A stretch of DNA of 32,000 nt from Faecalibaculum rodentium (lineage in GTDB: Bacteria; Bacillota_I; Bacilli_A; Erysipelotrichales; Erysipelotrichaceae), in assembly GCF_001564455.1 (NCBI RefSeq), contig NZ_CP011391.1, positions 300,001 to 332,000 of the forward strand. The letters are read 5' to 3'. Shown in pieces: positions 11,019-21,279 of this stretch (positions are counted from its first letter, which is position 1; each line of letters begins with the position of its first letter). The translations under genes and the position numbers were made by a program. The notes below the pieces were generated by a model. It had not been told where the DNA came from and did no database searches. It saw only the letters and a list, made by a program, of their open reading frames with translations.

Positions 11019-11203
11019 TAAAAAGAGCCTGCATGCACCTGTGACAGCGCCCACGGTAACCAGCCAGTTTTCCGCCGATCCCGCAATCCCCTACTGGCAA
11101 ATACCTCAGGATCCGTGACTGAGGGAAGCGCAACGCCTTCCGGCGGTCTATAATGAAGAAGACATTGAACGCTCAAATCAAAGAGGCTGAAGGAGGAACT
11201 CAT

Positions 11204-12283
11204 ATGCTTCGAATCGGAATGCTGACCAGCGGCGGCGACTGCCAGGCCCTGAACGCCACCATGCGTGCAATTTACAAATCTGTGGCCCACAACGCAAAGG
11301 AACCCTTTGAATTCTACGGATTCCAGGATGGGTACAAGGGCCTCATGTACAACAAATACAGAATGCTGACAGGGGATGACTTCACGGGAATCCTCACCGT
11401 CGGCGGGACGATCCTCGGCACAAGCCGGGTACCGTTCAAGGACATCCGCAAGCCGGATGAAAACGGCAACGACAAAGTCGAGATGATGAAACATACCTAC
11501 AACGAGCTGGAGCTCGACTGTCTGGTGGTGCTGGGCGGCAACGGTTCCCTGAAGACCGCCAACCTGCTCTCCCAGGAGGGACTGAATGTCATCGCCATGC
11601 CCAAGACCATCGACAACGATCTCTGGGGAACGGACATGACCTTCGGGTTCCAGTCCGCGGTGGACATTGCCACGAGGGCAATCGACGAGATCCACACCAC
11701 GGCATCCAGTCACGGACGGGTGTTCATTGTGGAGATCATGGGGCACAAAACCGGCTGGCTGCCGCTGAATGCAGGCATTGCCGGCGGCGCGGACATCATT
11801 CTGCTGCCGGAGATCCCCTACAGCATGGACAAGATCGTGGAGGTCATTGAGAAGAAGAAGACCAACAACGCCGGCCGGTTCATGATCCTGGCGGTGGCCG
11901 AAGGCGCCATTTCCCAGGAGGACAAGAAGCTGTCCAAGAAGGAATACAAGAAGCAGCTGCAGAACTACATGTTCCCGTCGGTGTCCTACAAACTCGCGGC
12001 GGAGATCGAAGAACGCACGGGGCGGGAAGTCCGCGTCACGGTGCCCGGGCACACACAGCGCGGTGGCATGCCGGATGCCTACGACCGGGTTTTTGCCAGC
12101 CGTCTGGGATCTGAAGGCGGGCGTATGATCTGCGAAGGTGCCTTCGGGTTCATGGTGGCATACAGAAACCGGGAAATTGTCCGGGTTCCCCTGGAAGATG
12201 CCGCCGGCAAGCTGAAGCTCGTGCAGCCGGATTCGACGATCATCAACGAAGCCCGTATGCTGGGGATCAGTTTCGGAGACTGA
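11204..12283 (+). CDS. pfkA: ATP-dependent 6-phosphofructokinase
   Basis: Motifs 'GMLTSGGDCQALN', 'PKTIDNDL' and 'PGHTQRGG'. AGGAGG RBS at 11191-11196 supports the ATG at 11204 rather than the ORF-track start at 11153. Confidence 0.9.
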   Translation: MLRIGMLTSGGDCQALNATMRAIYKSVAHNAKEPFEFYGFQDGYKGLMYNKYRMLTGDDFTGILTVGGTILGTSRVPFKDIRKPDENGNDKVEMMKHTYNELELDCLVVLGGNGSLKTANLLSQEGLNVIAMPKTIDNDLWGTDMTFGFQSAVDIATRAIDEIHTTASSHGRVFIVEIMGHKTGWLPLNAGIAGGADIILLPEIPYSMDKIVEVIEKKKTNNAGRFMILAVAEGAISQEDKKLSKKEYKKQLQNYMFPSVSYKLAAEIEERTGREVRVTVPGHTQRGGMPDAYDRVFASRLGSEGGRMICEGAFGFMVAYRNREIVRVPLEDAAGKLKLVQPDSTIINEARMLGISFGD

Positions 12284-12284
12284 C

Positions 12285-12878
12285 ATGCCGGCATTTCCGA
12301 TGTTTGTGGATCTCTCACAGAAATCGGTGCTCATTGTCGGCGGCGGTCAGATTGCCCTGCATAAAGCAAAAGCCCTGGAGCCCTTTGGCCCAAGGCTCTT
12401 TGTTGTCGCACCGGATGTGGACACCGCCTTTGATGAGATGCCCTCTGTCACGGTGCGTAGAAAGGAATACAGCGAGGATGATCTGAAGGGCATGGATATG
12501 GTCGTAGCTGCCACGGATGATTATTGCCTCAATGCACAGGTGGCGGCGGATGCCGGAAAACACCAATTGCCGGTGAATGTGGTGGATGAACCGGATCTGT
12601 GCGGGTTTTATTTCGGCAGCATGATCACCGAAGGAGATCTGACTGTTGCAGTTTCCACGGATGGGGCCAGTCCTGCCGCAGCCAGAGAGCTGAAAAAGAG
12701 GATCCGGGAGGTACTGCCCAGGGATGTGGAAGCATCTCTGGCGGTGATGAAGGCCCTGCGGCCCTTGGTAAAGCGGGTGTATCCGGATCAGAAACAGCGA
12801 AGTCGGGTGCTCAATGGGCTCACGAAGCGGGTGATGGAGGCGGATGCGGTGTGTGAGGGAGAGACAGAGAAAAAATAG
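12285..12878 (+). CDS. sirC: Precorrin-2 dehydrogenase / sirohydrochlorin ferrochelatase (SirC / CysG N-terminal-like)
   Basis: N-terminal Rossmann motif 'VLIVGGGQIALHKAKAL', about 200 aa, and an 'AVSTDGASPAAAREL' motif typical of Met8p/CysG-N/SirC. The start lies 1 nt after the pfkA stop. Confidence 0.8.
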   Translation: MPAFPMFVDLSQKSVLIVGGGQIALHKAKALEPFGPRLFVVAPDVDTAFDEMPSVTVRRKEYSEDDLKGMDMVVAATDDYCLNAQVAADAGKHQLPVNVVDEPDLCGFYFGSMITEGDLTVAVSTDGASPAAARELKKRIREVLPRDVEASLAVMKALRPLVKRVYPDQKQRSRVLNGLTKRVMEADAVCEGETEKK

Positions 12879-13011
12879 GGGAGTCAGTCAGCTTTAGCGG
12901 CATTCCGAATCTGTCTACAGCAGCGGACAGGCACAGGAGCTCAGATCAGACCATCTGTCCGGACAGTACAGGTGGAACAGGGGGACAGCCGTAACAGGTG
13001 ACCGGATATGT

Positions 13012-13060
13012 AAAAGCCGCAGGACGTTACGCAGTATTGCGCATAGGTCCTGCGGCTTTT
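13012..13060. terminator. Strong bidirectional terminator-like hairpin
   Basis: AAAAGCCGCAGGAC (13012-13025) pairs perfectly with GTCCTGCGGCTTTT (13047-13060). The loop carries an inner CGCA/TGCG stem. Confidence 0.6.
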
Positions 13061-13311
13061 GTCGTGATGAAGGATGCAGCCGCCATGAATATCAGGCAGG
13101 GAGACAGGCAGCTGTATGGTCGCTGATCTCTCTCTGTCGAAGTTGGAATGGACTCCAACTTTTGGTGAAATCTGCCGCCAGTTGGAGTGCGTTTGCATAC
13201 TGCCGGGGCAACCTTTCCCGGTGGTTTCCCATGGTATTTGCCAAAATGTATCCCCTATATGGCGGTTGATTCATCATCCCAATCAAACAGTACCCCGGAT
13301 ACGATGTTCAG

Positions 13312-13328
13312 TCTGATGAGAAACAGAA
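13312..13328 (+). repeat. Left copy of the 17-nt direct repeat TCTGATGA[G/C]AAACAGAA (putative island junction)
   Basis: 16/17 identical to 18457-18473 in the same orientation. Lies where composition drops from about 60% to about 40-50% GC. Confidence 0.55.
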
Positions 13329-13433
13329 CGCAAGATGGCAAGATAACAATATGATTACCAATTGATGGACAGATAAACAAAATATAAGTAAAATTGAGAC
13401 TGGGTTTAGTAATACTCCAAAGAGGTGATGACC

Positions 13434-13742
13434 ATGCATGTTACTCCATCTTTTGTTGAATCAGTATTATCTGCCTATCCGTTTGCACTGCTCATGATTC
13501 GTGATGAGAATTTGCCGGAGGAATCAGAGCTGAAAACAATCTCCAGACTGATCATTCAGTTTTATGCTCAGTGGGCCATCCGTCTGGATTCACTGGAGAA
13601 AGAAGCAATTGAGCTCCGTTACTTTAAGCGGAAGTCATTGGCAGAGATTGCAGCCGAACTGGGATATGAGAACCACAGCTCTGCAAAACGGCTTATTGAC
13701 CACACCGTGAACCGAATAGCTGAGAATGTCAGAAGCATCTGA
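13434..13742 (+). CDS. Small sigma-70 region-4-like / ArpU-RinA-like HTH protein
   Basis: C-terminal 'EKEAIELRYFKRKSLAEIAAELGYENHSSAKRLIDHTVNRIAENV' resembles a sigma region 4 HTH. No region 2 is present. AGAGGTG SD at 13421-13427 favours the ATG at 13434 over 13428 or the GTG at 13425. Confidence 0.6.
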   Translation: MHVTPSFVESVLSAYPFALLMIRDENLPEESELKTISRLIIQFYAQWAIRLDSLEKEAIELRYFKRKSLAEIAAELGYENHSSAKRLIDHTVNRIAENVRSI

Positions 13743-13866
13743 TATAAGCTATTTATAAGGATTTAATTCGGATATATAGCACATATGTGCCTGAATATTT
13801 CGTTATTCTGAATATGCAGACAACGACCGGTCATATTGTCTGAACAGAAAGAATGGTGATTATTTT

Positions 13867-16104
13867 ATGGCAGACAGCTTTGTACTGGAAGCACAGAAGT
13901 ATCTGAATGAAACGTATGGACACAACAGCAACTGGGTTCATCTGGACGAAAACGGTATGACGGGTGGATTGATGATGGAAGGCCTGGTCAGGGCGTTTCA
14001 GATCGAGCATGGAGTTCCCAGCGTTACGGGATATCTTGGACCCTATACAGTGAATATCATGCGTTCTCTGAATGACATTGAAAAAATGGATCCTTCAGAC
14101 GAACCTTCCAGCGATGTGAAACTGATTCAATGCGCGCTGTTCTGCAAAGGGTATCACGCAGGAGGAATCACAGGCATTTATTACACAAATGGTGTAAATG
14201 CCGTCAAACAGTATCAGGAAGATGCCGGGTTCAAAACCAGCGGTGTGATTGACTGGAAAGTCTGGCAGGGACTTTTCTCCATGGGCTGGTTTCAGCTTGT
14301 TCCAGGAGGAGATCCAACGCTTCGTGTAATTCAGCGAAGCATCAATGCGGACTGGTCCTCAGTCATTGGTGTCCAGCCATGTGAAGGCGTCATGAGCCGG
14401 AATACAGCTCTGTCTCTCATTGGATGCCTGCAGGGTGCACTGAATCTACAGACATGGATCCCGGACCTCACTTCTGTGGTCTTCGGGCCTGCCACTCAGT
14501 CGGCATTCTCTCAGCATCCTCTTTACGAAGGATGCTCAGAACCGGCACTGGTGAAGATTGCAAAATATGCGCTGTACTTTTACGGATTTAGCCAGACTGA
14601 ATTCTCCGGTACCTTTACCAGTGGAATGCGGCTCAACGTTGCAAACTTCCAGAAAGAGTACGGACTGACAGGACTGGATGGGGTGATTTCAGGACAAATT
14701 CATCTGACTACAATGATGTCTCTGCTGACCAGCAGAGGCAATCCCAACCGTCCCTGCACAGGCGGAGATACTTCACAGATCCTGTCCAGACAGATGTGTG
14801 ACAACCTGAAAGCAGCCGGATACAACGTAATTGGACGCTATCTGACTGGAACAGTTGGCGTGGGTGCGGCAGAACGCCCGAAATCCCTCACACCCGAAGA
14901 AATCAGGAATATTCAGGATGCAGGACTGTCGGTTTTTCCCATCTATCAGAATGGCGGGTATTATGCTGACTATTTCAAAATCAGTGGACGCGGATCCTAT
15001 GATGCGGTGACAGCGCTGCGGACTGCATCTGTCCTGGGATTTCCGGAAGAAACAGTGATCTATTTCGCGGTGGATTTCGACTGCATGAGTTATCAGACCG
15101 AGTCACTGATCATTCCATATTTCAGACAGATCGCGAATGCCTTCAGACAAGCCGCGTTCAATCCCAAAAACTACAAAATCGGTATATATGGACCCCGTGA
15201 AGTCTGCAGGCAGATTTCAGCAGAAGGTCTGGCGGAGTATTCATTCGTTGCGGATATGTCCACCGGATTCTCTGGAAATCTCGGATTCCCGATTCCCTCC
15301 AACTGGGCTTTTGATCAGTTTGATCAATTCACGTTTGGGCCTTCTCCCGCTTTTCCCCTTGATAAAGTGGCAGTATCCGGTCGTGATGGAGGAGCGCGAA
15401 AGAATGATGTGGGCGGATCTGTGACCACTGCGGAAATGCTGCAGGAAGCCCGAAGCAAGTTTACACGTCGAGTATTGTCTGCGCTTGGTTTTACAGCCAG
15501 AAAGCGGATCGACTTTGAATTTGAAGTGGGTGAACAGGTTCTGCCACCAGTATCCTCTGGAGGATTAATCATCTACCCGAGCATAAAAGAAACCGTCACA
15601 GTTCCATTTGGAGAAGATGATAGTGGTGTTATTTCTGTAAATACTCTGGACGGGAAACTTGATATCGATCTCACAACCACATTGGCTGAGATTCAAAATG
15701 TATGCGACAGTAACTCGATTAGTATAGATTTATCAGCAATGCTGAAAAATATCAGCTATGCAATTCGGAGCGGTGCAATGAAATACACCTATACGATTAA
15801 TTCCGACGGTTCAGCAACTTTTGATATTTCCATTGGTACAGACGATCTGCAGTCAGTAGAAGGAGTAGCGGGAAGTATCGGTATTGTGCTAAGTATGAAT
15901 ATTAAGTTCACAGATTCAAATGCCTATGAATGGGTTAGAGAAAGTGAAAAGCAGAAATATACAGTAGCAGCAATGGCGTTTGTTGTTTTACTTCCAATTA
16001 CAAATCCCATATTGATTGAACAAGCAAAAATTGTTCTGGTGAAAATCGTTGAGACTCTGTCTTTTGGAAGACTCATTCTGCAGGGAAGTCGAAAGAAAGA
16101 ATGA
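13867..16104 (+). CDS. Multidomain cell-wall protein: peptidoglycan-binding-like repeats + DUF1906 (Rv2525c/GH25-like) domain + unrecognised C-terminal domain with hydrophobic tail
   Basis: About four PGBD-like repeats in aa 1-290 (e.g. 'VKLIQCALFCKGYHAGGITGIYYTNGVNAVKQYQEDAGFKTSGVIDWKVWQGL'). The DUF1906-like core spans aa about 295-510 ('NVIGRYLTG', 'VFPIYQNGG', 'IYFAVDFD', 'KIGIYGPREVC', 'FVADMSTGFSGNLGFPIPSNWAFDQF'). No N-terminal signal peptide is visible. Confidence 0.75.
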   Translation: MADSFVLEAQKYLNETYGHNSNWVHLDENGMTGGLMMEGLVRAFQIEHGVPSVTGYLGPYTVNIMRSLNDIEKMDPSDEPSSDVKLIQCALFCKGYHAGGITGIYYTNGVNAVKQYQEDAGFKTSGVIDWKVWQGLFSMGWFQLVPGGDPTLRVIQRSINADWSSVIGVQPCEGVMSRNTALSLIGCLQGALNLQTWIPDLTSVVFGPATQSAFSQHPLYEGCSEPALVKIAKYALYFYGFSQTEFSGTFTSGMRLNVANFQKEYGLTGLDGVISGQIHLTTMMSLLTSRGNPNRPCTGGDTSQILSRQMCDNLKAAGYNVIGRYLTGTVGVGAAERPKSLTPEEIRNIQDAGLSVFPIYQNGGYYADYFKISGRGSYDAVTALRTASVLGFPEETVIYFAVDFDCMSYQTESLIIPYFRQIANAFRQAAFNPKNYKIGIYGPREVCRQISAEGLAEYSFVADMSTGFSGNLGFPIPSNWAFDQFDQFTFGPSPAFPLDKVAVSGRDGGARKNDVGGSVTTAEMLQEARSKFTRRVLSALGFTARKRIDFEFEVGEQVLPPVSSGGLIIYPSIKETVTVPFGEDDSGVISVNTLDGKLDIDLTTTLAEIQNVCDSNSISIDLSAMLKNISYAIRSGAMKYTYTINSDGSATFDISIGTDDLQSVEGVAGSIGIVLSMNIKFTDSNAYEWVRESEKQKYTVAAMAFVVLLPITNPILIEQAKIVLVKIVETLSFGRLILQGSRKKE

Positions 16105-16264
16105 TAGTCTGCAAGATAATAACAAGATAATAAAAGGAATCAGTCTGGGTCATTCAAGTAATCAGTATCATATTGCTGAGAGAAGTGGAATCTGTGAATT
16201 GAGACAGACTTCAGAATTTGCTTCCTATTAGTACTAAAAATGGTATAAATATCTTACGGAGAAG

Positions 16265-16298
16265 AAATCCGGTTTAGTAGTTAGCCGGATTTTCTTTT
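16265..16298 (+). terminator. Terminator candidate after the 745-aa gene
   Basis: AAATCCGG (16265-16272) pairs with CCGGATTT (16285-16292), followed by TCTTTT. Confidence 0.55.
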
Positions 16299-16379
16299 GT
16301 ATTGCCTTATATACTACGACAGCTATTTTTGTATGCACTATGCCATCATTCTTGATTTCCCAATATAGAAAGGAAATAT

Positions 16380-16892
16380 ATGAAAAATCAGTCTTCTGTC
16401 ACTGGCACGGCAACTCAATACAGAAGAATGTCTGTTTTCTGGAAAGCCGTGATGCCTGTTTCCCTGTTTATGCCATTGTTGTGCGGTGTCTGTGCTTCAC
16501 TTTGGCTATTCGTTTCTGGATTGTCGTTTCTCTCTGTGGTTGTTCTTCTCCTATACGTGGCGGTGTACAGACCCCGGAAAAAGGACCTGGCGCAGCTGAG
16601 AGTCCGTCCGGATTCCTGTCCCTTTGCAGCTTCTGAGGCAGGCATTGCCTTTCCTGACTCGGATTTGACAGTAAACTGGAACCAAATCCGGAGTTGGGCA
16701 GGGGAAAAAGAAGGCGTAGTTGCCACGCTTGACTTCTCGCCCTTTGACCTGCCCGATACGCTGGAGACCAGAGTCCTGGTCCATGAAAACGGGATTTCCT
16801 GCAGGTTGACACCAGACTCTCATCAGGACAGACAGGTCCTGATCCAGCTGTTTCGTTCTTTTGGACCGTACCGTGAAGGAGAGAAACAATGA
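16380..16892 (+). CDS. 2-TM membrane protein with small C-terminal soluble domain (type A, copy 1); possible bPH/YcxB-like fold
   Basis: Two hydrophobic helices (aa about 22-45 and 48-63) are followed by about 100 soluble aa. Paralogous to the 17430-17962 gene ('FAASEAGIAFPDSDLTVNWNQIRSW' versus 'FTASAAGIEFTGTDTVIGWKQVRKW'). GAAAGGA RBS. Confidence 0.7.
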   Translation: MKNQSSVTGTATQYRRMSVFWKAVMPVSLFMPLLCGVCASLWLFVSGLSFLSVVVLLLYVAVYRPRKKDLAQLRVRPDSCPFAASEAGIAFPDSDLTVNWNQIRSWAGEKEGVVATLDFSPFDLPDTLETRVLVHENGISCRLTPDSHQDRQVLIQLFRSFGPYREGEKQ

Positions 16893-17401
16893 AACTCAAA
16901 TGTCTGTTTCCTGAACATGTACCTGGAGGTCTGCGGCTGAAATTTCTGCAGAAGGCCAGATTTGCCTGGGTTTTCCCCCTGGTCATAGCTGGTATTGTGA
17001 CTGCAGCTTCTCTTGTTTCTCCAATGGACCAGACCCAGTGGTTCTGGACCGTTGGTATTGTTTTGGTTCTTGTTCTCCTGGCTCTGGTGAGCCTGGTGAC
17101 TGTCCTGTATGCGGGTCTGGGACATAAGGTATGTTTTCCCAACGCCTCTAAGACCGCAGAGGTCTTCTGCAATCTGAGTGAAACAGGACTTGCTTTTGAA
17201 TCTGAGGATCCAGGTGTGATTTATATCCCCAATGTGGACTGGAGTGAAGTCCCGCTGTACCAGATTGAAGGGTATGACCTGTATCTGAGTCCCGCAGGAG
17301 GAGGTCCGGTCATGATCGTGCTGGATCTTCGTGGGATCTCTCTGCAGGAAATGAGATCCCTGACAGACTTGCTGAAAGCCAGTTCCCTTGTGAAAGTATG
17401 A
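16889..17401 (+). CDS. 2-TM membrane protein with small C-terminal soluble domain (type B, copy 1)
   Basis: ATGA overlap with the upstream stop (16889-16892) and a GAAGGAGAG RBS. Clear paralogue of 17949-18461 ('PNASKTAEVFCNLSETGLAFESEDPGVIYIPNVDWSEV' versus 'PNASKTTDVFCTVDETGLYFSSPDRSVVYLPEVSWDEI'). Confidence 0.7.
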   Translation: MKLKCLFPEHVPGGLRLKFLQKARFAWVFPLVIAGIVTAASLVSPMDQTQWFWTVGIVLVLVLLALVSLVTVLYAGLGHKVCFPNASKTAEVFCNLSETGLAFESEDPGVIYIPNVDWSEVPLYQIEGYDLYLSPAGGGPVMIVLDLRGISLQEMRSLTDLLKASSLVKV

Positions 17402-17429
17402 GTTCCGACGGTGATTGAGGAGAATGGAA

Positions 17430-17962
17430 ATGGAAAATGAAATAGTGATCAAAGGGCACGCCAGGCCTTATCGGTTTTTTTCCGTTTCCTGATTGCGGGG
17501 TATATCGTTCTGTTCATCCCTCCGCTTTTGTTGTTGCTGATAATTCTGAGTTCACTTTTGGTGGGGGGAGAACCGGTGATGGGATCGGCTTCCCTGATTG
17601 CGCTGCTGGTTTGCACCGTTCAGTTGATTCGAGGCTACCGAAACCTGTCCAAGGAAACACCTGGTTTCTTTACCGCATCCGCTGCCGGCATTGAATTTAC
17701 CGGTACAGATACTGTCATTGGTTGGAAACAGGTCAGGAAGTGGTCCAGAAAACGAAAGGGAATTCTGATAACTCTGGAAGCTGGACCATACAGATCACTT
17801 CAGACGTTTTCCGGACTGGTCCTCGGTCATGACAAGGGGTTTGCATTTCTTCTACGGCCTGATGCCAGTCAACAGAATAAAGAAACGGTTTATACAGAAC
17901 TGATACAGTTGCTGAATCAGAACACAAAGGACAGAAAGAAGGGTGATCATGATCACGTTTAA
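17430..17962 (+). pseudogene. Type A copy 2, interrupted by a frameshift at a T7 tract (or a slippage-dependent gene)
   Basis: The ATG at 17430 (GAGGAG SD at 17417-17422) opens 'MENEIVIKGHARPYRFFSVS*', which stops at 17490-17492. The paralogous body is in the -1 frame, open from 17441, with no ATG; the ORF track uses the TTG at 17528. One extra T in the T7 run at 17475-17481 would fuse the two frames. Confidence 0.6.
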
Positions 17963-18461
17963 ATGCTGTTTTCCAGAGAACGTGTCCAAAGAATTTCGGG
18001 TGGCAACGGTGTCTCCTATATGGAGAACATTGGGATTGCCTGTATTCTGTGTGGGCTATTCCCTGTATCTGGCCTGTCAGCCTGTGTCGGATACAGTGAG
18101 GTACAGTCTGATTGGGGTTGCCATCCTTGGAGCCATATGCGGGGGTCTGCAGCTGTGGGCCAGAAGGGTTCTCGGTTTTGGGTATCCACCACATTATCCC
18201 AATGCCTCAAAGACCACTGACGTGTTCTGCACGGTGGATGAGACCGGCTTGTATTTTTCGTCGCCGGACCGTTCTGTGGTATATCTTCCGGAAGTCTCCT
18301 GGGATGAGATCAAGAGCTATCGGCTGATTGGCTCGACGCTGTTTCTGACACCGTATAAATGGGCAGTGGTGCTGGTGGCGCTGGATATGGACGGCCATAC
18401 GCTGGAGGAATGGAGAGACCTCGTTGAGCTGATGAAAGCCGGCAATGTTTCGGAAATCTGA
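17949..18461 (+). CDS. 2-TM membrane protein with small C-terminal soluble domain (type B, copy 2)
   Basis: The ATG at 17949 aligns 'MITFKCCFPENV' with copy 1 'MKLKCLFPEHV'. It overlaps the upstream gene by 14 nt. The ORF-track start at 17943 is a GTG. Confidence 0.7.
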   Translation: MITFKCCFPENVSKEFRVATVSPIWRTLGLPVFCVGYSLYLACQPVSDTVRYSLIGVAILGAICGGLQLWARRVLGFGYPPHYPNASKTTDVFCTVDETGLYFSSPDRSVVYLPEVSWDEIKSYRLIGSTLFLTPYKWAVVLVALDMDGHTLEEWRDLVELMKAGNVSEI

Positions 18462-18473
18462 TGACAAACAGAA
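18457..18473 (+). repeat. Right copy of the 17-nt direct repeat (putative island junction)
   Basis: TCTGATGACAAACAGAA. It overlaps the stop codon of the last island gene and immediately precedes a terminator hairpin. Confidence 0.55.
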
Positions 18474-18476
18474 AAC

Positions 18477-18520
18477 AGAGCGGATGTCCCTGCGTCATGA
18501 CAGGGGAGATCCGCTCTTTT
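18477..18520. terminator. Terminator hairpin between the island and convergent manA
   Basis: AGAGCGGAT (18477-18485) pairs with ATCCGCTCT (18509-18517), with an inner TCCCTG/CAGGGGA stem, followed by TTT. Confidence 0.65.
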
Positions 18521-18575
18521 CAGTGCCTTCTGCAATCTGAATGGACCGCATCGGTTCTCTCACAGAAAAACCTTC

Positions 18576-19529
18576 TCAGTTCTGCTCACGGTTCCGATAG
18601 GAGGCCAGAAACAGATCCAGGTTCCCGCAGATCTGAAGCGCACCCATCCCTGCCGGGACCAGAATAGTCTCTCCCTGGCGGACCGGAATACCATTCACAG
18701 TCCCTTCTCCTTTTGCCGCTGTCAGGAAACAGAACCGGTCATGGATGAAGGTTCCGCGGTCTTCGCACTCCAGCCGGATCAGGGTATACAGACCCGGCTC
18801 ATCCCAGTACCGGGTGGCCTTCAGGCCCTGTTCCAGAGAAGAGGGCAGCATCTCAAACTCGATCAGTCTGTCCGGCAGATTCACGTTGTCATAGACGGCC
18901 TCCGGCTGGATCGGTCTTGTGGTGCCGGTATTCGGGTCGATCCTGTCATAGTCGTACAGCCGAAGGGTCAGATCTGCGTTCCGGGAAATGTTGTAGGTCA
19001 GTACGCCTTTGCCAATGGCATGGAGGGTGCCCGCCGGAATGTCAATGAACCCGCCAACCGGTGTATGCAGATACCGCAGCAGTTTCTCCCATTCCCGGTT
19101 CTCCGTCATCCGGACAAATTCATCCCTGTTCTTTGCGTAATGCCCGAACTGGATCTGCCCGTCTTCCGGTGCATCCAGAATCACCCAGGCCTCCGGCTTT
19201 CCTCTGCCGCCGTTCCAGGTCCGGGCAAAGGCATCGTCCGGATGCAGCTGAATGGACAGATCGTCCATGGGATCCAGGATGTTGACCCGAATGGGCAGTT
19301 CCTTTGTATCGCAGTCAAACCAGTCCGGGGCAGCCGTATACAGCTCTGACAGCGTCATCTTCAGCTGCTGTATTTCACAGTCTGCATGTCCTGGCAGCGC
19401 CACCACATTGTAGACTTCTCCCAGGGGCTTTACATCGGTATGGTAATGAAACTCCGTTTCCAGCCGGGTTCCGCCACCCCACATCCTCGGTTCATAATAC
19501 GGGCTGATGTGCACAATCTCTTTCTTCAT
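18576..19529 (-). CDS. manA: Mannose-6-phosphate isomerase, class I
   Basis: 'PRMWGGG', 'SIQLHPDD' and 'KPEAWVIL' cupin motifs typical of Firmicutes type I PMI (about 315 aa). Confidence 0.9.
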   Translation of the reverse strand: MKKEIVHISPYYEPRMWGGGTRLETEFHYHTDVKPLGEVYNVVALPGHADCEIQQLKMTLSELYTAAPDWFDCDTKELPIRVNILDPMDDLSIQLHPDDAFARTWNGGRGKPEAWVILDAPEDGQIQFGHYAKNRDEFVRMTENREWEKLLRYLHTPVGGFIDIPAGTLHAIGKGVLTYNISRNADLTLRLYDYDRIDPNTGTTRPIQPEAVYDNVNLPDRLIEFEMLPSSLEQGLKATRYWDEPGLYTLIRLECEDRGTFIHDRFCFLTAAKGEGTVNGIPVRQGETILVPAGMGALQICGNLDLFLASYRNREQN

Positions 19530-19722
19530 ATCCGCTTCCTTCCTCTCTGACTCTTACGATACAGCATTCAAAAAGCGCATTCACCTAAAATGTTATGACA
19601 TTTTCAGAGAGCAGGCTCCAGGATAGGCCATTGCCATCCGCCTCTGCCGGCTTTCATCTGGCTGCGGCAAAACACACGCCATCCCTTGCGGCAGTTTCGG
19701 GACGGACCACAGCTGGTCTCTC

Positions 19723-19731
19723 TGCTAGAAT
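19723..19731 (+). promoter_or_regulatory. Extended -10 candidate (TGCTAGAAT) upstream of cobA-hemD
   Basis: TGnTAGAAT lies about 45 nt upstream of the ATG at 19777. No convincing -35 was found. Confidence 0.3.
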
Positions 19732-19776
19732 GACAGCTGTACAGGGCATGGTTTCAGCTGCCCGGGAGGCTTGGAT

Positions 19777-21279
19777 ATGAAACAGGACACAGTCACAGAA
19801 ATCAGACAGGAGCCGGGAACGGTGATTCTGGCAGGAGCCGGATGCGGCGGCAGGGAACTGCTGACCCTGCAGGTGCTGGACCTGATCAGACGGGCAGACG
19901 TGATCGTCTATGACGACTTGATTTCGCAGGACATCCTGGATATCGATACGGATGCAGAGTGGATCTACGCGGGAAAACGCAAAGGCCTTCACAGCATGAC
20001 ACAGGAGGAAATCAACGAGCTCCTCATTTCCCTGGCCCAGACCCATGCGCTGGTTCTCCGTCTGAAAGGCGGCGATCCCTTTGTGTTCGGACGCGGACGG
20101 GAAGAAATGCGGGCTGTCCGGGAAGCGGGTATCTGTTGCCAGAGCGCACCGGGGATCACCAGTGCCATTGCGGTGCCGGAACGTTTTGACATCCCCGTCA
20201 CGGACCGGATCCACGCCTCTTCCTTCACGGTGATCACGGCTTCCCGGAAAAGTCAGGGAAAGCCCTTCGGTGCTGATGCAGGGTGGGTAGCGCATCAGCC
20301 CGGCACCCTGGTGATCCTCATGGGCCTTTCCAGGCTTCCGGAAATCGTGGAGGAACTGATCCGGGCCGGAAAGGATCCCCGGACACCGACAGCGGTGATT
20401 TCCTCTGCGGAAATCAGCCATTCGGAGATGGTCAGGGGAGAACTGAGTGAAATCACGGGAAAAGCGGCGGCTTTGCAGCCGCCGGCAATCATCCTGATCG
20501 GGGATGTGGTGAAGGAAGCCCGGCTGCCGCAGGACATGGCGGAAAAAGAAAAGCCGCAGCGGTTTACAGTCTGGACCACGTTCACCGATGACCTGACAGC
20601 CCGGGTGCGCAGGCGGCTGCCTGACACGATCCGGCTGATTCCGGTACTGGAGGCTGCCCATGAAAGAGTGGAGTCTGCAAAACCCCGGGATCTGGAGACT
20701 GACTGGATCGTCCTGACCAGCCGTCGGGGCGCCGGATTTTTCCTGGAGGACCTGAAGAAACAGAAACTGGATCTGCGGAAACTGCCGAAGATCGCGGTGG
20801 TGGGCAAAGCCACAGCCGAGGTGCTGGAAGAAGCGGGACTCTACCCGGACCTGGTGCCGGAAACTGCCGAAACGCCGGAACTGGTCCGGGAGCTGAAAAG
20901 AGCAGCAGAACCCGGCAGCCGGATCCTGCTGCTGCGGGCGCGCGAAGCCGACCATGAGATGGAGACGGCCCTGGAAACGGACTTCCGGGTGATGCGGAAG
21001 GATCTTTACGAAATCCGCTACAGCAGCCGGGACCTGAAGCGGCTCCCCGGACCGGATCTGATGGCTTTCGCTTCCCGCAGCGCCGTCAGGGCCTGGAAGG
21101 AACCGGTTCCCTGTCCGGTGCTGTGCATCTCCGATATCACGGCTTCCCAGGTGCATCAGGATCACCCGGAAGCGTCTGTCCTGCTGGCAGATGAAATCAG
21201 TGCAGCGGGGCTCGCGGAAACGATCATCGGTCTGAGCCAGGCAGAATCAGCTGTTCCGGAGCCTGGATCTGCCAGATAA
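19777..21279 (+). CDS. cobA-hemD: Uroporphyrinogen-III C-methyltransferase / uroporphyrinogen-III synthase fusion
   Basis: The N-terminal half is SUMT-like ('VILAGAGCGGRELLTLQVLDLIRRADVIVYDDL', 'LRLKGGDPFVFGRG'). The C-terminal about 250 aa is HemD-like. GGGAGG SD at 19764-19769 favours the ATG at 19777; the ORF-track start at 19771 is a TTG. Confidence 0.85.
   Translation: MKQDTVTEIRQEPGTVILAGAGCGGRELLTLQVLDLIRRADVIVYDDLISQDILDIDTDAEWIYAGKRKGLHSMTQEEINELLISLAQTHALVLRLKGGDPFVFGRGREEMRAVREAGICCQSAPGITSAIAVPERFDIPVTDRIHASSFTVITASRKSQGKPFGADAGWVAHQPGTLVILMGLSRLPEIVEELIRAGKDPRTPTAVISSAEISHSEMVRGELSEITGKAAALQPPAIILIGDVVKEARLPQDMAEKEKPQRFTVWTTFTDDLTARVRRRLPDTIRLIPVLEAAHERVESAKPRDLETDWIVLTSRRGAGFFLEDLKKQKLDLRKLPKIAVVGKATAEVLEEAGLYPDLVPETAETPELVRELKRAAEPGSRILLLRAREADHEMETALETDFRVMRKDLYEIRYSSRDLKRLPGPDLMAFASRSAVRAWKEPVPCPVLCISDITASQVHQDHPEASVLLADEISAAGLAETIIGLSQAESAVPEPGSAR

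Follow-up and report, generated by a model that had tools for sequence, protein, structure and literature searches.

Why would a bacterium keep a row of small, paired membrane proteins behind a large protein that binds the cell wall? The question is raised by a 32,000-nucleotide (nt) stretch of a Faecalibaculum (Erysipelotrichaceae) chromosome, hereafter the window, in which the gene for a 745-amino-acid (aa) protein related to YbfG of Bacillus is followed by genes of two alternating types, A1-B1-A2-B2. A first-pass annotation of the same DNA recognized the array and speculated about an immunity or partner role beside the wall-active neighbor. Here, we put forward a tentative reading, which we would place a little below even likelihood: A and B may constitute a two-subunit membrane immunity or antagonist module that is matched to the variable C-terminal tail of the large protein, with further pairs kept as orphan immunity pairs. 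The elements concerned are the following.

13867-16104, plus strand: YbfG-like protein of 745 aa, with three PG_binding_1 repeats, an Rv2525c-like barrel, a region rich in beta structure and a hydrophobic tail at the C-terminus
15589-16104, plus strand: hypervariable C-terminal module (residues about 575-745), including a hydrophobic segment at residues 699-717 and the residues beyond it
16264-16293, plus strand: terminator-like hairpin between the large gene and A1, with an 11-pair stem and then a T run
16380-16892, plus strand: A1, 170 aa, intact open reading frame (ORF)
16889-17401, plus strand: B1, 170 aa, intact ORF with a PNASKT motif in the tail; its start overlaps the A1 stop
17430-17962, plus strand: A2, disrupted; the 5' part (17430-17492) and the remainder (about 17483-17962) are in different frames
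17475-17484, plus strand: A2 frameshift site, TTTTTTTCCG, where relatives read TTTTTTTCCCG; a 1-nt deletion
17949-18461, plus strand: B2, intact ORF of 170 aa from its ATG, with a 14-nt overlap between its start and the A2 stop

A variable C-terminus and the pair that follows it

The large protein matches Pfam families PF01471 and PF08924, and residues 313-482 form the glycoside-hydrolase-like barrel of the Rv2525c type. It also matches phrog_15213 (E 1.9e-128), with lesser PHROG hits to endolysins. There is no signal peptide, the N-terminus opening directly with a PG_binding_1 repeat. A survey of homologues with one genome per species gathered 80 related loci from Lachnospiraceae, Erysipelotrichales, Bacillus (ybfG type), lactobacilli and Actinomycetota. 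Identity to the Bacillus ybfG-type proteins is 33-37% over about 640-680 residues with the same Pfam domains, and the Bacillus homologue carries Ybfg_C (PF21015) as well.

The key feature of this protein is the abrupt end of its conservation. Between the window and F. rodentium, residues 1-548 are 97% identical and the remainder 50%; in successive 25-aa segments, identity stays at 92% or higher as far as residue ~550 and is then 80, 68, 32, 56, 76, 40, 20 and 14%. The Bacillus orthologues behave in the same way: an identity of 98% gives way to 14-44% over the final 100-150 aa. These alignments mark the final 100-170 residues as a hypervariable, swapped module. A TelC/Lipocone toxin was considered as the identity of this C-terminus and rejected, as there was no supporting match and the region looks beta-rich and hydrophobic; fusions of proteins with a PGBD and an Rv2525c-like barrel to TelC, with fast-evolving neighbors, have been described from Actinomycetota (Lipocone preprint, 10.1101/2025.01.14.632903).

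Does the downstream gene follow the changes in this module? Among 11 Bacillus species, the identity of the small membrane partner encoded after ybfG shows a stronger correlation with C-terminal identity (Spearman 0.90, Mantel p 0.0002) than with N-terminal identity (0.66). In Faecalibaculum, the same relation can be read from the order of the pairs at the surveyed loci (numbered with L).

Window and L090-L093: window-type C-terminus, then A1/B1, then A2 (frameshifted)/B2
L001 (F. rodentium): F. rodentium-type C-terminus, then A2/B2, A1/B1 and a second A2/B2
L010: F. rodentium-type C-terminus, then one A2/B2-type pair

The C-terminal parts of L001 and L010 are 71% identical, although the N-terminal part of L010 is the more distant one. 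Across these three lineages, the C-terminal type thus appears to predict the type of the first A/B pair. The pair with a broken member in the window lineage (A2) is the non-cognate one. The proposal in the first-pass annotation that the pair was duplicated as a unit is borne out: each Faecalibaculum locus examined has an A followed by the B of matching type, in one, two or three pairs. Where the large gene is present in this genus, it is always followed by A/B. A fragment at 11682-12132 of L010, about 2.2 kb further downstream, matches the 3' two-thirds of B2 at 75% identity and looks like the remnant of a lost pair.

Intact A1B1A2B2 arrays also occur in two contexts without the large gene on the contig. 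In one (L007/L008), only short ORFs lie upstream; in the other (L094-L096), the array comes after defense-type genes of the DUF499, DUF1156 and SNF2 kinds. When compared with each other, these orphan arrays are under purifying selection, with a ratio of nonsynonymous to synonymous substitution rates (dN/dS) of 0.19-0.33.

The array and its broken member

The array was initially described as four consecutive genes for proteins of about 170 aa. The ORFs, coordinates and common strand hold, but A2 is frameshifted, so that the intact genes number three (A1, B1 and B2). The translational overlaps, an ATGA of 4 nt between A1 and B1 (16889-16892) and 14 nt between A2 and B2 (17949-17962), are as first noted, and each recurs in relatives in its type-specific form. 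Orthologues that begin with MITFKC confirm the B2 start. Purifying selection acts on each of the four gene types: dN/dS among orthologues is 0.15-0.58, and these values mark them as real and fairly fast-evolving genes.

The division into two types, which had been drawn from shared motifs, is firm: both motifs occur in the respective proteins, the tails of A1 and A2 have 37% identity over 81 aa (E 1e-16), and B1 and B2 have 31% across the full 170 aa (E 5e-31). A looser resemblance between A and B tails had also been noted. The profile alignment is indeed colinear, starting immediately after the second transmembrane (TM) helix, but the similarity is weak (BLASTP E 0.12; profile-profile E 4e-4 to 8e-4, probability 24-36%), and common ancestry of A and B is best called plausible.

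What happened to A2? Its natural start is the ATG at 17430, with GAGGAG upstream, and a stop at 17490-17492 ends this frame. In the conserved frame, no ATG, GTG or TTG precedes the TTG at 17528, which itself lies within the first TM helix; intact A2 orthologues have 176-177 aa. The lesion is the loss of one C beside a run of seven T. A random sequencing error was considered and rejected: four separate metagenome assemblies (L090-L093) carry the identical 1-nt deletion, which must therefore be a real mutation of the lineage. Slippage at the T7 run, programmed or transcriptional, could in principle restore some full-length A2, and nothing supports it. A deposited F. rodentium protein of the B2 type (P0016) has an N-terminus that comes from an alternative frame (MLFSRERVQRISGG...; compare 17963-18220 of the window), so that a B2 gene is frameshifted in another lineage too. 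Decay of single pair members thus seems recurrent.

A 20-nt stretch in the ribosome-binding-site region before the large-gene start (13844-13863) recurs, 90% identical, at 17931-17950, before the start of B2; this may be chance or a shared translation-initiation context.

Topology and fold of A and B

Each of the four proteins has two hydrophobic helices, which in A1 span about residues 19-38 and 44-63. Lysine and arginine are placed in the N-terminus and right after the second helix, with at most one in the inter-helix loop (the one in B2). By the positive-inside rule, ends rich in these residues face the cytoplasm, and the distribution therefore predicts an N-in/C-in hairpin with a cytoplasmic tail. 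The predicted tail has 95-109 aa (107 aa in A1, 95 aa in B1).

The first-pass annotation had allowed that A and B might be referred to a known family unrelated to the neighboring gene. This did not happen: Pfam, NCBIfam, PHROG and PADLOC place them in no family, the only matches being weak ones driven by the TM helices (TauE, Cpta_toxin). With the YcxB-like hidden Markov model (HMM) PF14317 (gathering score 23.3 bits), neither A1, B1, A2 and B2 nor the F. rodentium and L007 orthologues give a match at E <=1, and the same threshold yields no match of A or B to the bacterial PH-domain (bPH) families of Pfam (bPH_1-6, such as PF03703 of YdbS/YdbT). None of the four proteins has any PHROG match at E <=0.1, holin and lysis families included.

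Relatives of A and B are correspondingly few. An exhaustive HMMER profile search with the B family against 1.84 billion representative proteins returned two full-length Faecalibaculum clusters, fragments and one spurious match, a protein with cadherin-like repeats (P0021) that we set aside. Three word-indexed homologue searches with the array proteins found relatives only from Faecalibaculum (F. rodentium or its relatives) and fragments, and a scan of IMG/VR viral contigs with the B profile found no relatives. A1 orthologues, which are 63-91% identical, come from Faecalibaculum only. At the level of sequence, then, the A/B family is restricted to this genus.

The fold can be approached through AlphaFold models, which are of low confidence. 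The predicted local distance difference test (pLDDT) score is 57.9 for B1 and 66.6 overall for A1, with 75-87 in most of the A1 tail and 60-69 over residues 121-140. In both, the modeled tail has 5-6 strands closed by a C-terminal helix. Foldseek comparison of B1 with the PDB gave PH-like neighbors for all 50 structures listed, the top ones all FERM-F3 domains with E from 2.6e-3 upward. Most of the neighbors listed for A1 are PH-like as well (FERM-F3, PTB, Pob3/Spt16), with ribosome recycling factor at rank 1. The PH-like alignments cover ~82 columns with a root-mean-square deviation of 3-5 A, none of them at E 1e-3 or better, and among the 50 matches listed per model there is no solved bacterial PH-domain entry, judging by description. 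Foldseek against BFVD produced no informative structural match for A or B. Taken together, the models make PH-like tails likely. The likeness to YcxB-like and bPH proteins that had been suspected from topology thus survives at the level of topology and fold (with PH-like Foldseek neighbors, none significant), but not as HMM membership.

Small membrane genes behind YbfG-like genes elsewhere

Is a small membrane gene behind the large one peculiar to Faecalibaculum? We counted as a partner any same-strand ORF of 100-320 aa that starts within -60 to +200 nt of the stop of the large gene. Such an ORF is present in 47 of the 67 YbfG-like loci with enough downstream sequence. A TM segment is predicted in every one of the 47 partners, and two or more in 34 of them; the control for TM frequency, which consisted of uncurated ORFs in all frames, is a crude one. 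The suspected link of the array to a wall-active neighbor is thereby strengthened: homologues of the large gene in many Bacillota and Actinomycetota precede a small membrane gene, and the partner co-varies with the C-terminus. The partners group by lineage into sequence families that are unrelated to one another, a pattern like that of fast-evolving immunity genes.

Family 1, Lachnospiraceae/Erysipelotrichales: short N-terminal part, two helices, then a beta-rich tail of ~100 aa, the plan of A and B
Family 2, Bacillus: helical N-terminus, two helices and a short tail
Family 3, Actinomycetota: one helix and an outside domain
Others: several singletons

YcxB-like (PF14317) matches were found in 7 of the 14 family-1 partners, mostly below threshold (best E 1.9e-5), and A and B align colinearly with the YcxB-like partners of other genera. 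These alignments, from hmmsearch and hhalign against the partners of other genera, are sub-threshold (E 2e-3 to 1e-2), and we do not claim homology. A search of all downstream ORFs with the A/B profiles reached the Bacillus partners only at E >=0.07, which gives no membership in the YbfF family.

Some YbfG-like loci have two or three tandem partner paralogues. The 295-aa partner at L049 (8277-9164) is an internal duplication of the two-TM unit, its halves being related at E 4e-11. In Bacillus, the partner takes the form of one unit of 142-171 aa, of a tandem of two genes (B. sonorensis) or of the fused duplication of 295 aa (L049 compared with L050, L058 and L061). By analogy, the duplicated two-TM unit of Bacillus parallels the A+B pair of Faecalibaculum.

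Phenotypes are available for B. subtilis, in which YbfF is encoded after ybfG. Deletion of ybfF leads to lysis with beta-lactams, and overexpression protects against beta-lactam lysis in a dose-dependent manner; deletion of ybfG leaves sensitivity to the four tested beta-lactams unchanged, and the ybfF deletion strain grows without drug (bioRxiv 10.64898/2026.05.13.724699). That study draws no connection between YbfF and YbfG. In proteomics of B. amyloliquefaciens, YbfG, annotated as a cell-membrane protein, was found in matrix and cell-free fractions (PMC12020853).

Several YbfG-like genes appear to be mobile. A group of loci with identical scores (44% identity, E 5e-178 for most) spans Roseburia, Blautia, Dorea, Lachnospira, Erysipelatoclostridium and other genera (L017-L024, L027, L043, L048 and L009, the last from MT836466.1). 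In the two that were examined, L009 and L017, the YbfG-like gene is followed by a 186-aa partner and preceded by a PrgK-like gene; L017 additionally has PrgI- and VirB4-like conjugation genes before it. The identical scores across genera, together with the conjugation genes, indicate that a conjugative element is shared among human-gut Lachnospiraceae and other bacteria. One YbfG-like copy was deposited as an unverified 'bacteriophage' contig, and the Gardnerella (Actinomycetota) locus L045 has its YbfG-like gene just upstream of a phage small-terminase gene.

What might the pairs do?

How would an immunity module of this kind operate? The conserved N-terminal 550 residues of the large protein, with their PG-binding repeats and Rv2525c-type barrel, would engage the wall, and the variable C-terminal module, ending in a hydrophobic hairpin, would act in the membrane. 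A and B, produced in equal amounts through translational coupling, would form a heterodimer in which four helices make up a membrane unit and two PH-like tails extend into the cytoplasm, and this unit would recognize and neutralize its cognate C-terminal module. Given the hydrophobic hairpin that closes the variable module, and tails of A and B predicted to lie in the cytoplasm, the membrane is where recognition would have to happen; with the extracellular wall-binding and glycosidase-like domains out of reach of the tails, any antagonism must take place in or at the membrane. A1/B1 would be the cognate pair for the C-terminal variant of this strain, and A2/B2 an extra 'orphan' pair against the variant of F. 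rodentium that is now decaying in the window lineage. The heteromeric pair is a notion of the first-pass annotation; the coupling and the strict order of A then B stand, and from them we infer a heterodimer; recognition of the module and any toxic activity of it are inferences as well.

Polymorphic toxin-immunity systems have a characteristic signature: a conserved body, a bounded variable C-terminus, a small downstream gene that co-varies with it, and extra or orphan copies of that gene. Immunity to pore-forming colicins offers a precedent for the membrane step, as a small polytopic membrane protein meets a hydrophobic hairpin inside the membrane. This signature is found here. The large protein has a conserved body and a sharply bounded variable module, the downstream small genes co-vary with the C-terminus (in a small Faecalibaculum sample of three lineages), and orphan and extra pairs exist in contig-level data.

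A number of points weigh against an immunity function. No YbfG-like C-terminus is known to be toxic or lytic. A signal peptide is absent from the large protein, as is, in Pfam or NCBIfam, any secretion or trafficking domain of the LXG/WXG, PAAR or similar kind, and delivery to another cell is unexplained. The cytoplasmic tails of A and B cannot touch the extracellular domains of the large protein. Deletion of ybfG is without beta-lactam effect, and the drug-free growth of the ybfF deletion strain (bioRxiv 10.64898/2026.05.13.724699) implies that resident YbfG is not overtly self-toxic. In the window, 276 nt with the terminator-like hairpin separate the large gene from A1. The argument from cognate order rests on three Faecalibaculum lineages, the orphan arrays lie on metagenomic contigs whose genomes may have the large gene elsewhere, and co-variation is expected from any physical interaction, not from immunity alone. 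Moreover, A and B have no detectable sequence similarity to partners in other genera, and their structural models are weak.

Perhaps, then, the pairs have a different relationship to the large protein. They could be a device for its export, release or membrane anchoring, with the C-terminal hairpin as the recognized handle; we consider this improbable. The absence of a signal peptide from an endolysin-like protein, as judged from its PHROG matches, would be accounted for, small two-TM N-in/C-in proteins beside a lysin fit the topology of class II holins, and some homologues sit in prophage-like or conjugative-element contexts. In addition, a dedicated carrier would co-vary with the C-terminus just as an immunity protein would, and DdE/DdF, coupled PH-domain membrane proteins, are needed to export the signal-less enterocin DD14 (PMC8657885). 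However, it is difficult to see why intact arrays should persist under purifying selection without the large gene, or what an exporter would gain from two or three diverged copies. Passage of a folded protein of 700 aa via a four-helix unit is without precedent, a protein of 170 aa with a folded 100-aa tail and no PHROG lysis match is unlike typical holins, and the analogous YbfF of B. subtilis prevents lysis instead of promoting it. Regulation of the cell's own YbfG-like wall enzyme, with A/B restraining its membrane-anchored C-terminus under envelope stress and no conflict between strains, also strikes us as unlikely. It would fit the specific sensitization of B. subtilis to beta-lactams by ybfF deletion and the protection by overexpression, the occurrence of YbfG in matrix and cell-free fractions with its cell-membrane annotation (PMC12020853), and the model of restrained wall remodeling provided by antiholins of the LrgA type; synteny and co-variation suit any stable interaction. 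What such regulation leaves unexplained is the swapping of C-terminal modules between near-identical N-terminal parts, the extra non-cognate pairs and orphan arrays, and carriage on a variable low-GC (guanine plus cytosine) island and on conjugative or prophage-like elements.

Alternatively, A and B may have nothing to do with the large gene and be stand-alone PH-like membrane proteins that serve in envelope stress or in resistance to antimicrobial peptides, as proposed for YdbS/YdbT. Arrays do occur without the large gene, the terminator-like site sets the array of the window apart from it, A and B have no sequence similarity to YbfG-like partners elsewhere, and the cargo of the insertion site varies from strain to strain, so that a shared variable island would explain the adjacency. 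Against this stand the many distant genera in which proteins with two TM helices and a beta-rich tail of ~100 aa, borderline YcxB matches, are encoded directly after YbfG-like genes, and, within Faecalibaculum, the constant presence of A/B after the large gene and the agreement of the first pair type with the C-terminal type. We regard an unrelated function as quite improbable.

The immunity reading may be extended beyond this genus. YbfG-like proteins in general would then be polymorphic effectors of Gram-positive bacteria, antibacterial or autolytic, that form a widespread class not recognized before. Each would join a conserved body directed at the wall to an exchangeable, membrane-active C-terminal module, which a cognate small membrane protein would neutralize in the membrane; this broader claim is a doubtful one. 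If true, the version that evolved in Faecalibaculum would be PH-like and made of two subunits, with orphan pairs kept against kin, and the protection of B. subtilis from beta-lactam lysis by YbfF would be accounted for. Whatever the function, the comparison ties an unexplained B. subtilis phenotype to the upstream neighbor YbfG and gives YcxB-like two-helix membrane proteins their first functional context. If the pairs do confer immunity, the YbfG-like family would add effectors that are signal-less, wall-binding and C-terminally polymorphic to the conflict systems of Gram-positive bacteria. Faecalibaculum rodentium is a much-studied commensal of the mouse gut, where a strain-variable toxin/immunity-like locus could shape the coexistence of strains, and some YbfG-like genes travel on conjugative elements that human-gut Lachnospiraceae share.

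The island and its surroundings

The A/B array lies in an island of low GC content (44-49%, against 55-60% in the flanks) in a region that is 98% identical to metagenomic contig L090. To the left is a phosphofructokinase/sirohaem-synthase N-domain gene pair (11153-12878), and to the right a uroporphyrinogen methyltransferase/synthase gene (19771-21279). From left to right, the island contains a regulator-like gene, the large gene, the terminator-like hairpin and A1-B1-A2-B2. The further features are these.

13425-13742, plus strand: 105-aa protein resembling sigma-70 region 4 and phage RinA-type regulators, first gene of the island
18475-18517, strand not assigned: hairpin with T runs between B2 and a convergent gene (18576-19529), marking the end of the array

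The 105-aa protein has a sub-threshold match to Pfam Sigma70_r4 (E 6e-5), matches to sigma70-ECF and phage_rinA models of NCBIfam, and PHROG matches to transcription regulators. Its gene is present wherever the large gene is present, F. rodentium included, and absent from the orphan A/B loci; it may encode a dedicated activator of the large gene. To judge from the hairpin at 16264-16293, transcription of the A/B array can be independent of that of the large gene. The second hairpin was read from the sequence, and a minus-strand terminator-like site lies at 18493-18475. The convergent gene, which encodes 317 aa, is found in some strains and absent from F. rodentium.

Loci L001, L007 and L094 show that the interval flanked by the sirohaem-synthase N-domain and uroporphyrinogen methyltransferase/synthase genes (12878-19771) is a variable low-GC hotspot. 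Its cargo includes an additional AAA_14/DUF4143 ATPase in F. rodentium and the DUF499/DUF1156/SNF2 defense-type genes in L094. Flanking repeats that might serve as island borders were sought, and the candidates were unconvincing.

Comparison with known systems

In the literature searched, we found no publication on the YbfG-like/partner module as such. Among known systems, the polymorphic toxin-immunity cassettes (contact-dependent inhibition CdiA-CT/CdiI, Rhs and LXG) share with this locus a conserved body, a bounded variable C-terminus, a cognate downstream gene that co-varies with it, additional non-cognate copies and orphan arrays. Immunity to pore-forming colicins adds the pitting of a small membrane protein against a hydrophobic hairpin within the membrane. 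The Faecalibaculum locus differs in that no trafficking domain is recognizable, immunity would need two different subunits, and the variable module is a beta-rich region with a hydrophobic tail in place of a recognized toxin domain.

Holins and antiholins invite a different comparison. CidA, LrgA and the class II holins of phages are small two-TM proteins with both ends in the cytoplasm, and A and B have this topology and are likewise encoded beside a signal-less, muramidase-like protein. LrgA also resembles YbfF, the Bacillus analogue, in the link to beta-lactam lysis. In contrast, A and B are about twice the typical holin size, with a folded tail and no lysis match in PHROG, and duplicated and orphan pairs are not expected of holins.

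The ybfG-ybfF(-ybfE) operon of B. subtilis is related by way of the large protein, which is homologous and, in both organisms, is followed by a membrane gene that co-varies with its C-terminus. A YbfF-type partner can comprise two related two-TM units, as A+B would, and YbfF protects against lysis. However, no sequence similarity to A or B can be detected in YbfF itself, and the YbfF-type units have a helical N-terminal region and a short tail where A and B have a PH-like tail of 100 aa.

In architecture, A and B resemble two groups of PH-type membrane proteins. The YcxB-like family, PF14317, which we take to belong to the PH-like clan, has the same plan of an N-terminal two-helix hairpin with a small C-terminal domain. 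Half of the 14 family-1 partners in other genera match it, and A and B, which do not match it themselves, are colinear with those partners; no function for YcxB-like proteins was found in the literature searched. The other group consists of YdbS/YdbT-type couples, including DdE/DdF (PMC8657885), in which neighboring genes of the same orientation encode two membrane proteins built of a TM hairpin and a cytoplasmic PH-type domain. DdE/DdF is tied to a signal-less antibacterial product and to self-protection of the producer, and the statement in the first-pass annotation that YdbS/YdbT has been linked to bacteriocin resistance agrees with that report. The cargo of DdE/DdF is a small leaderless peptide and its demonstrated role is export, whereas the neighbor here is a wall-binding protein of 745 aa. 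YdbT/DdF, with six TM helices and three domains, is also unlike B, a single unit, and A and B match no bPH HMM. YdbS (159 aa, two TM helices, one domain) has the plan of A or B. Though they fail both HMM memberships, A and B probably fold, to judge from the models, like the two-helix PH-like membrane proteins of the YcxB and YdbS types.

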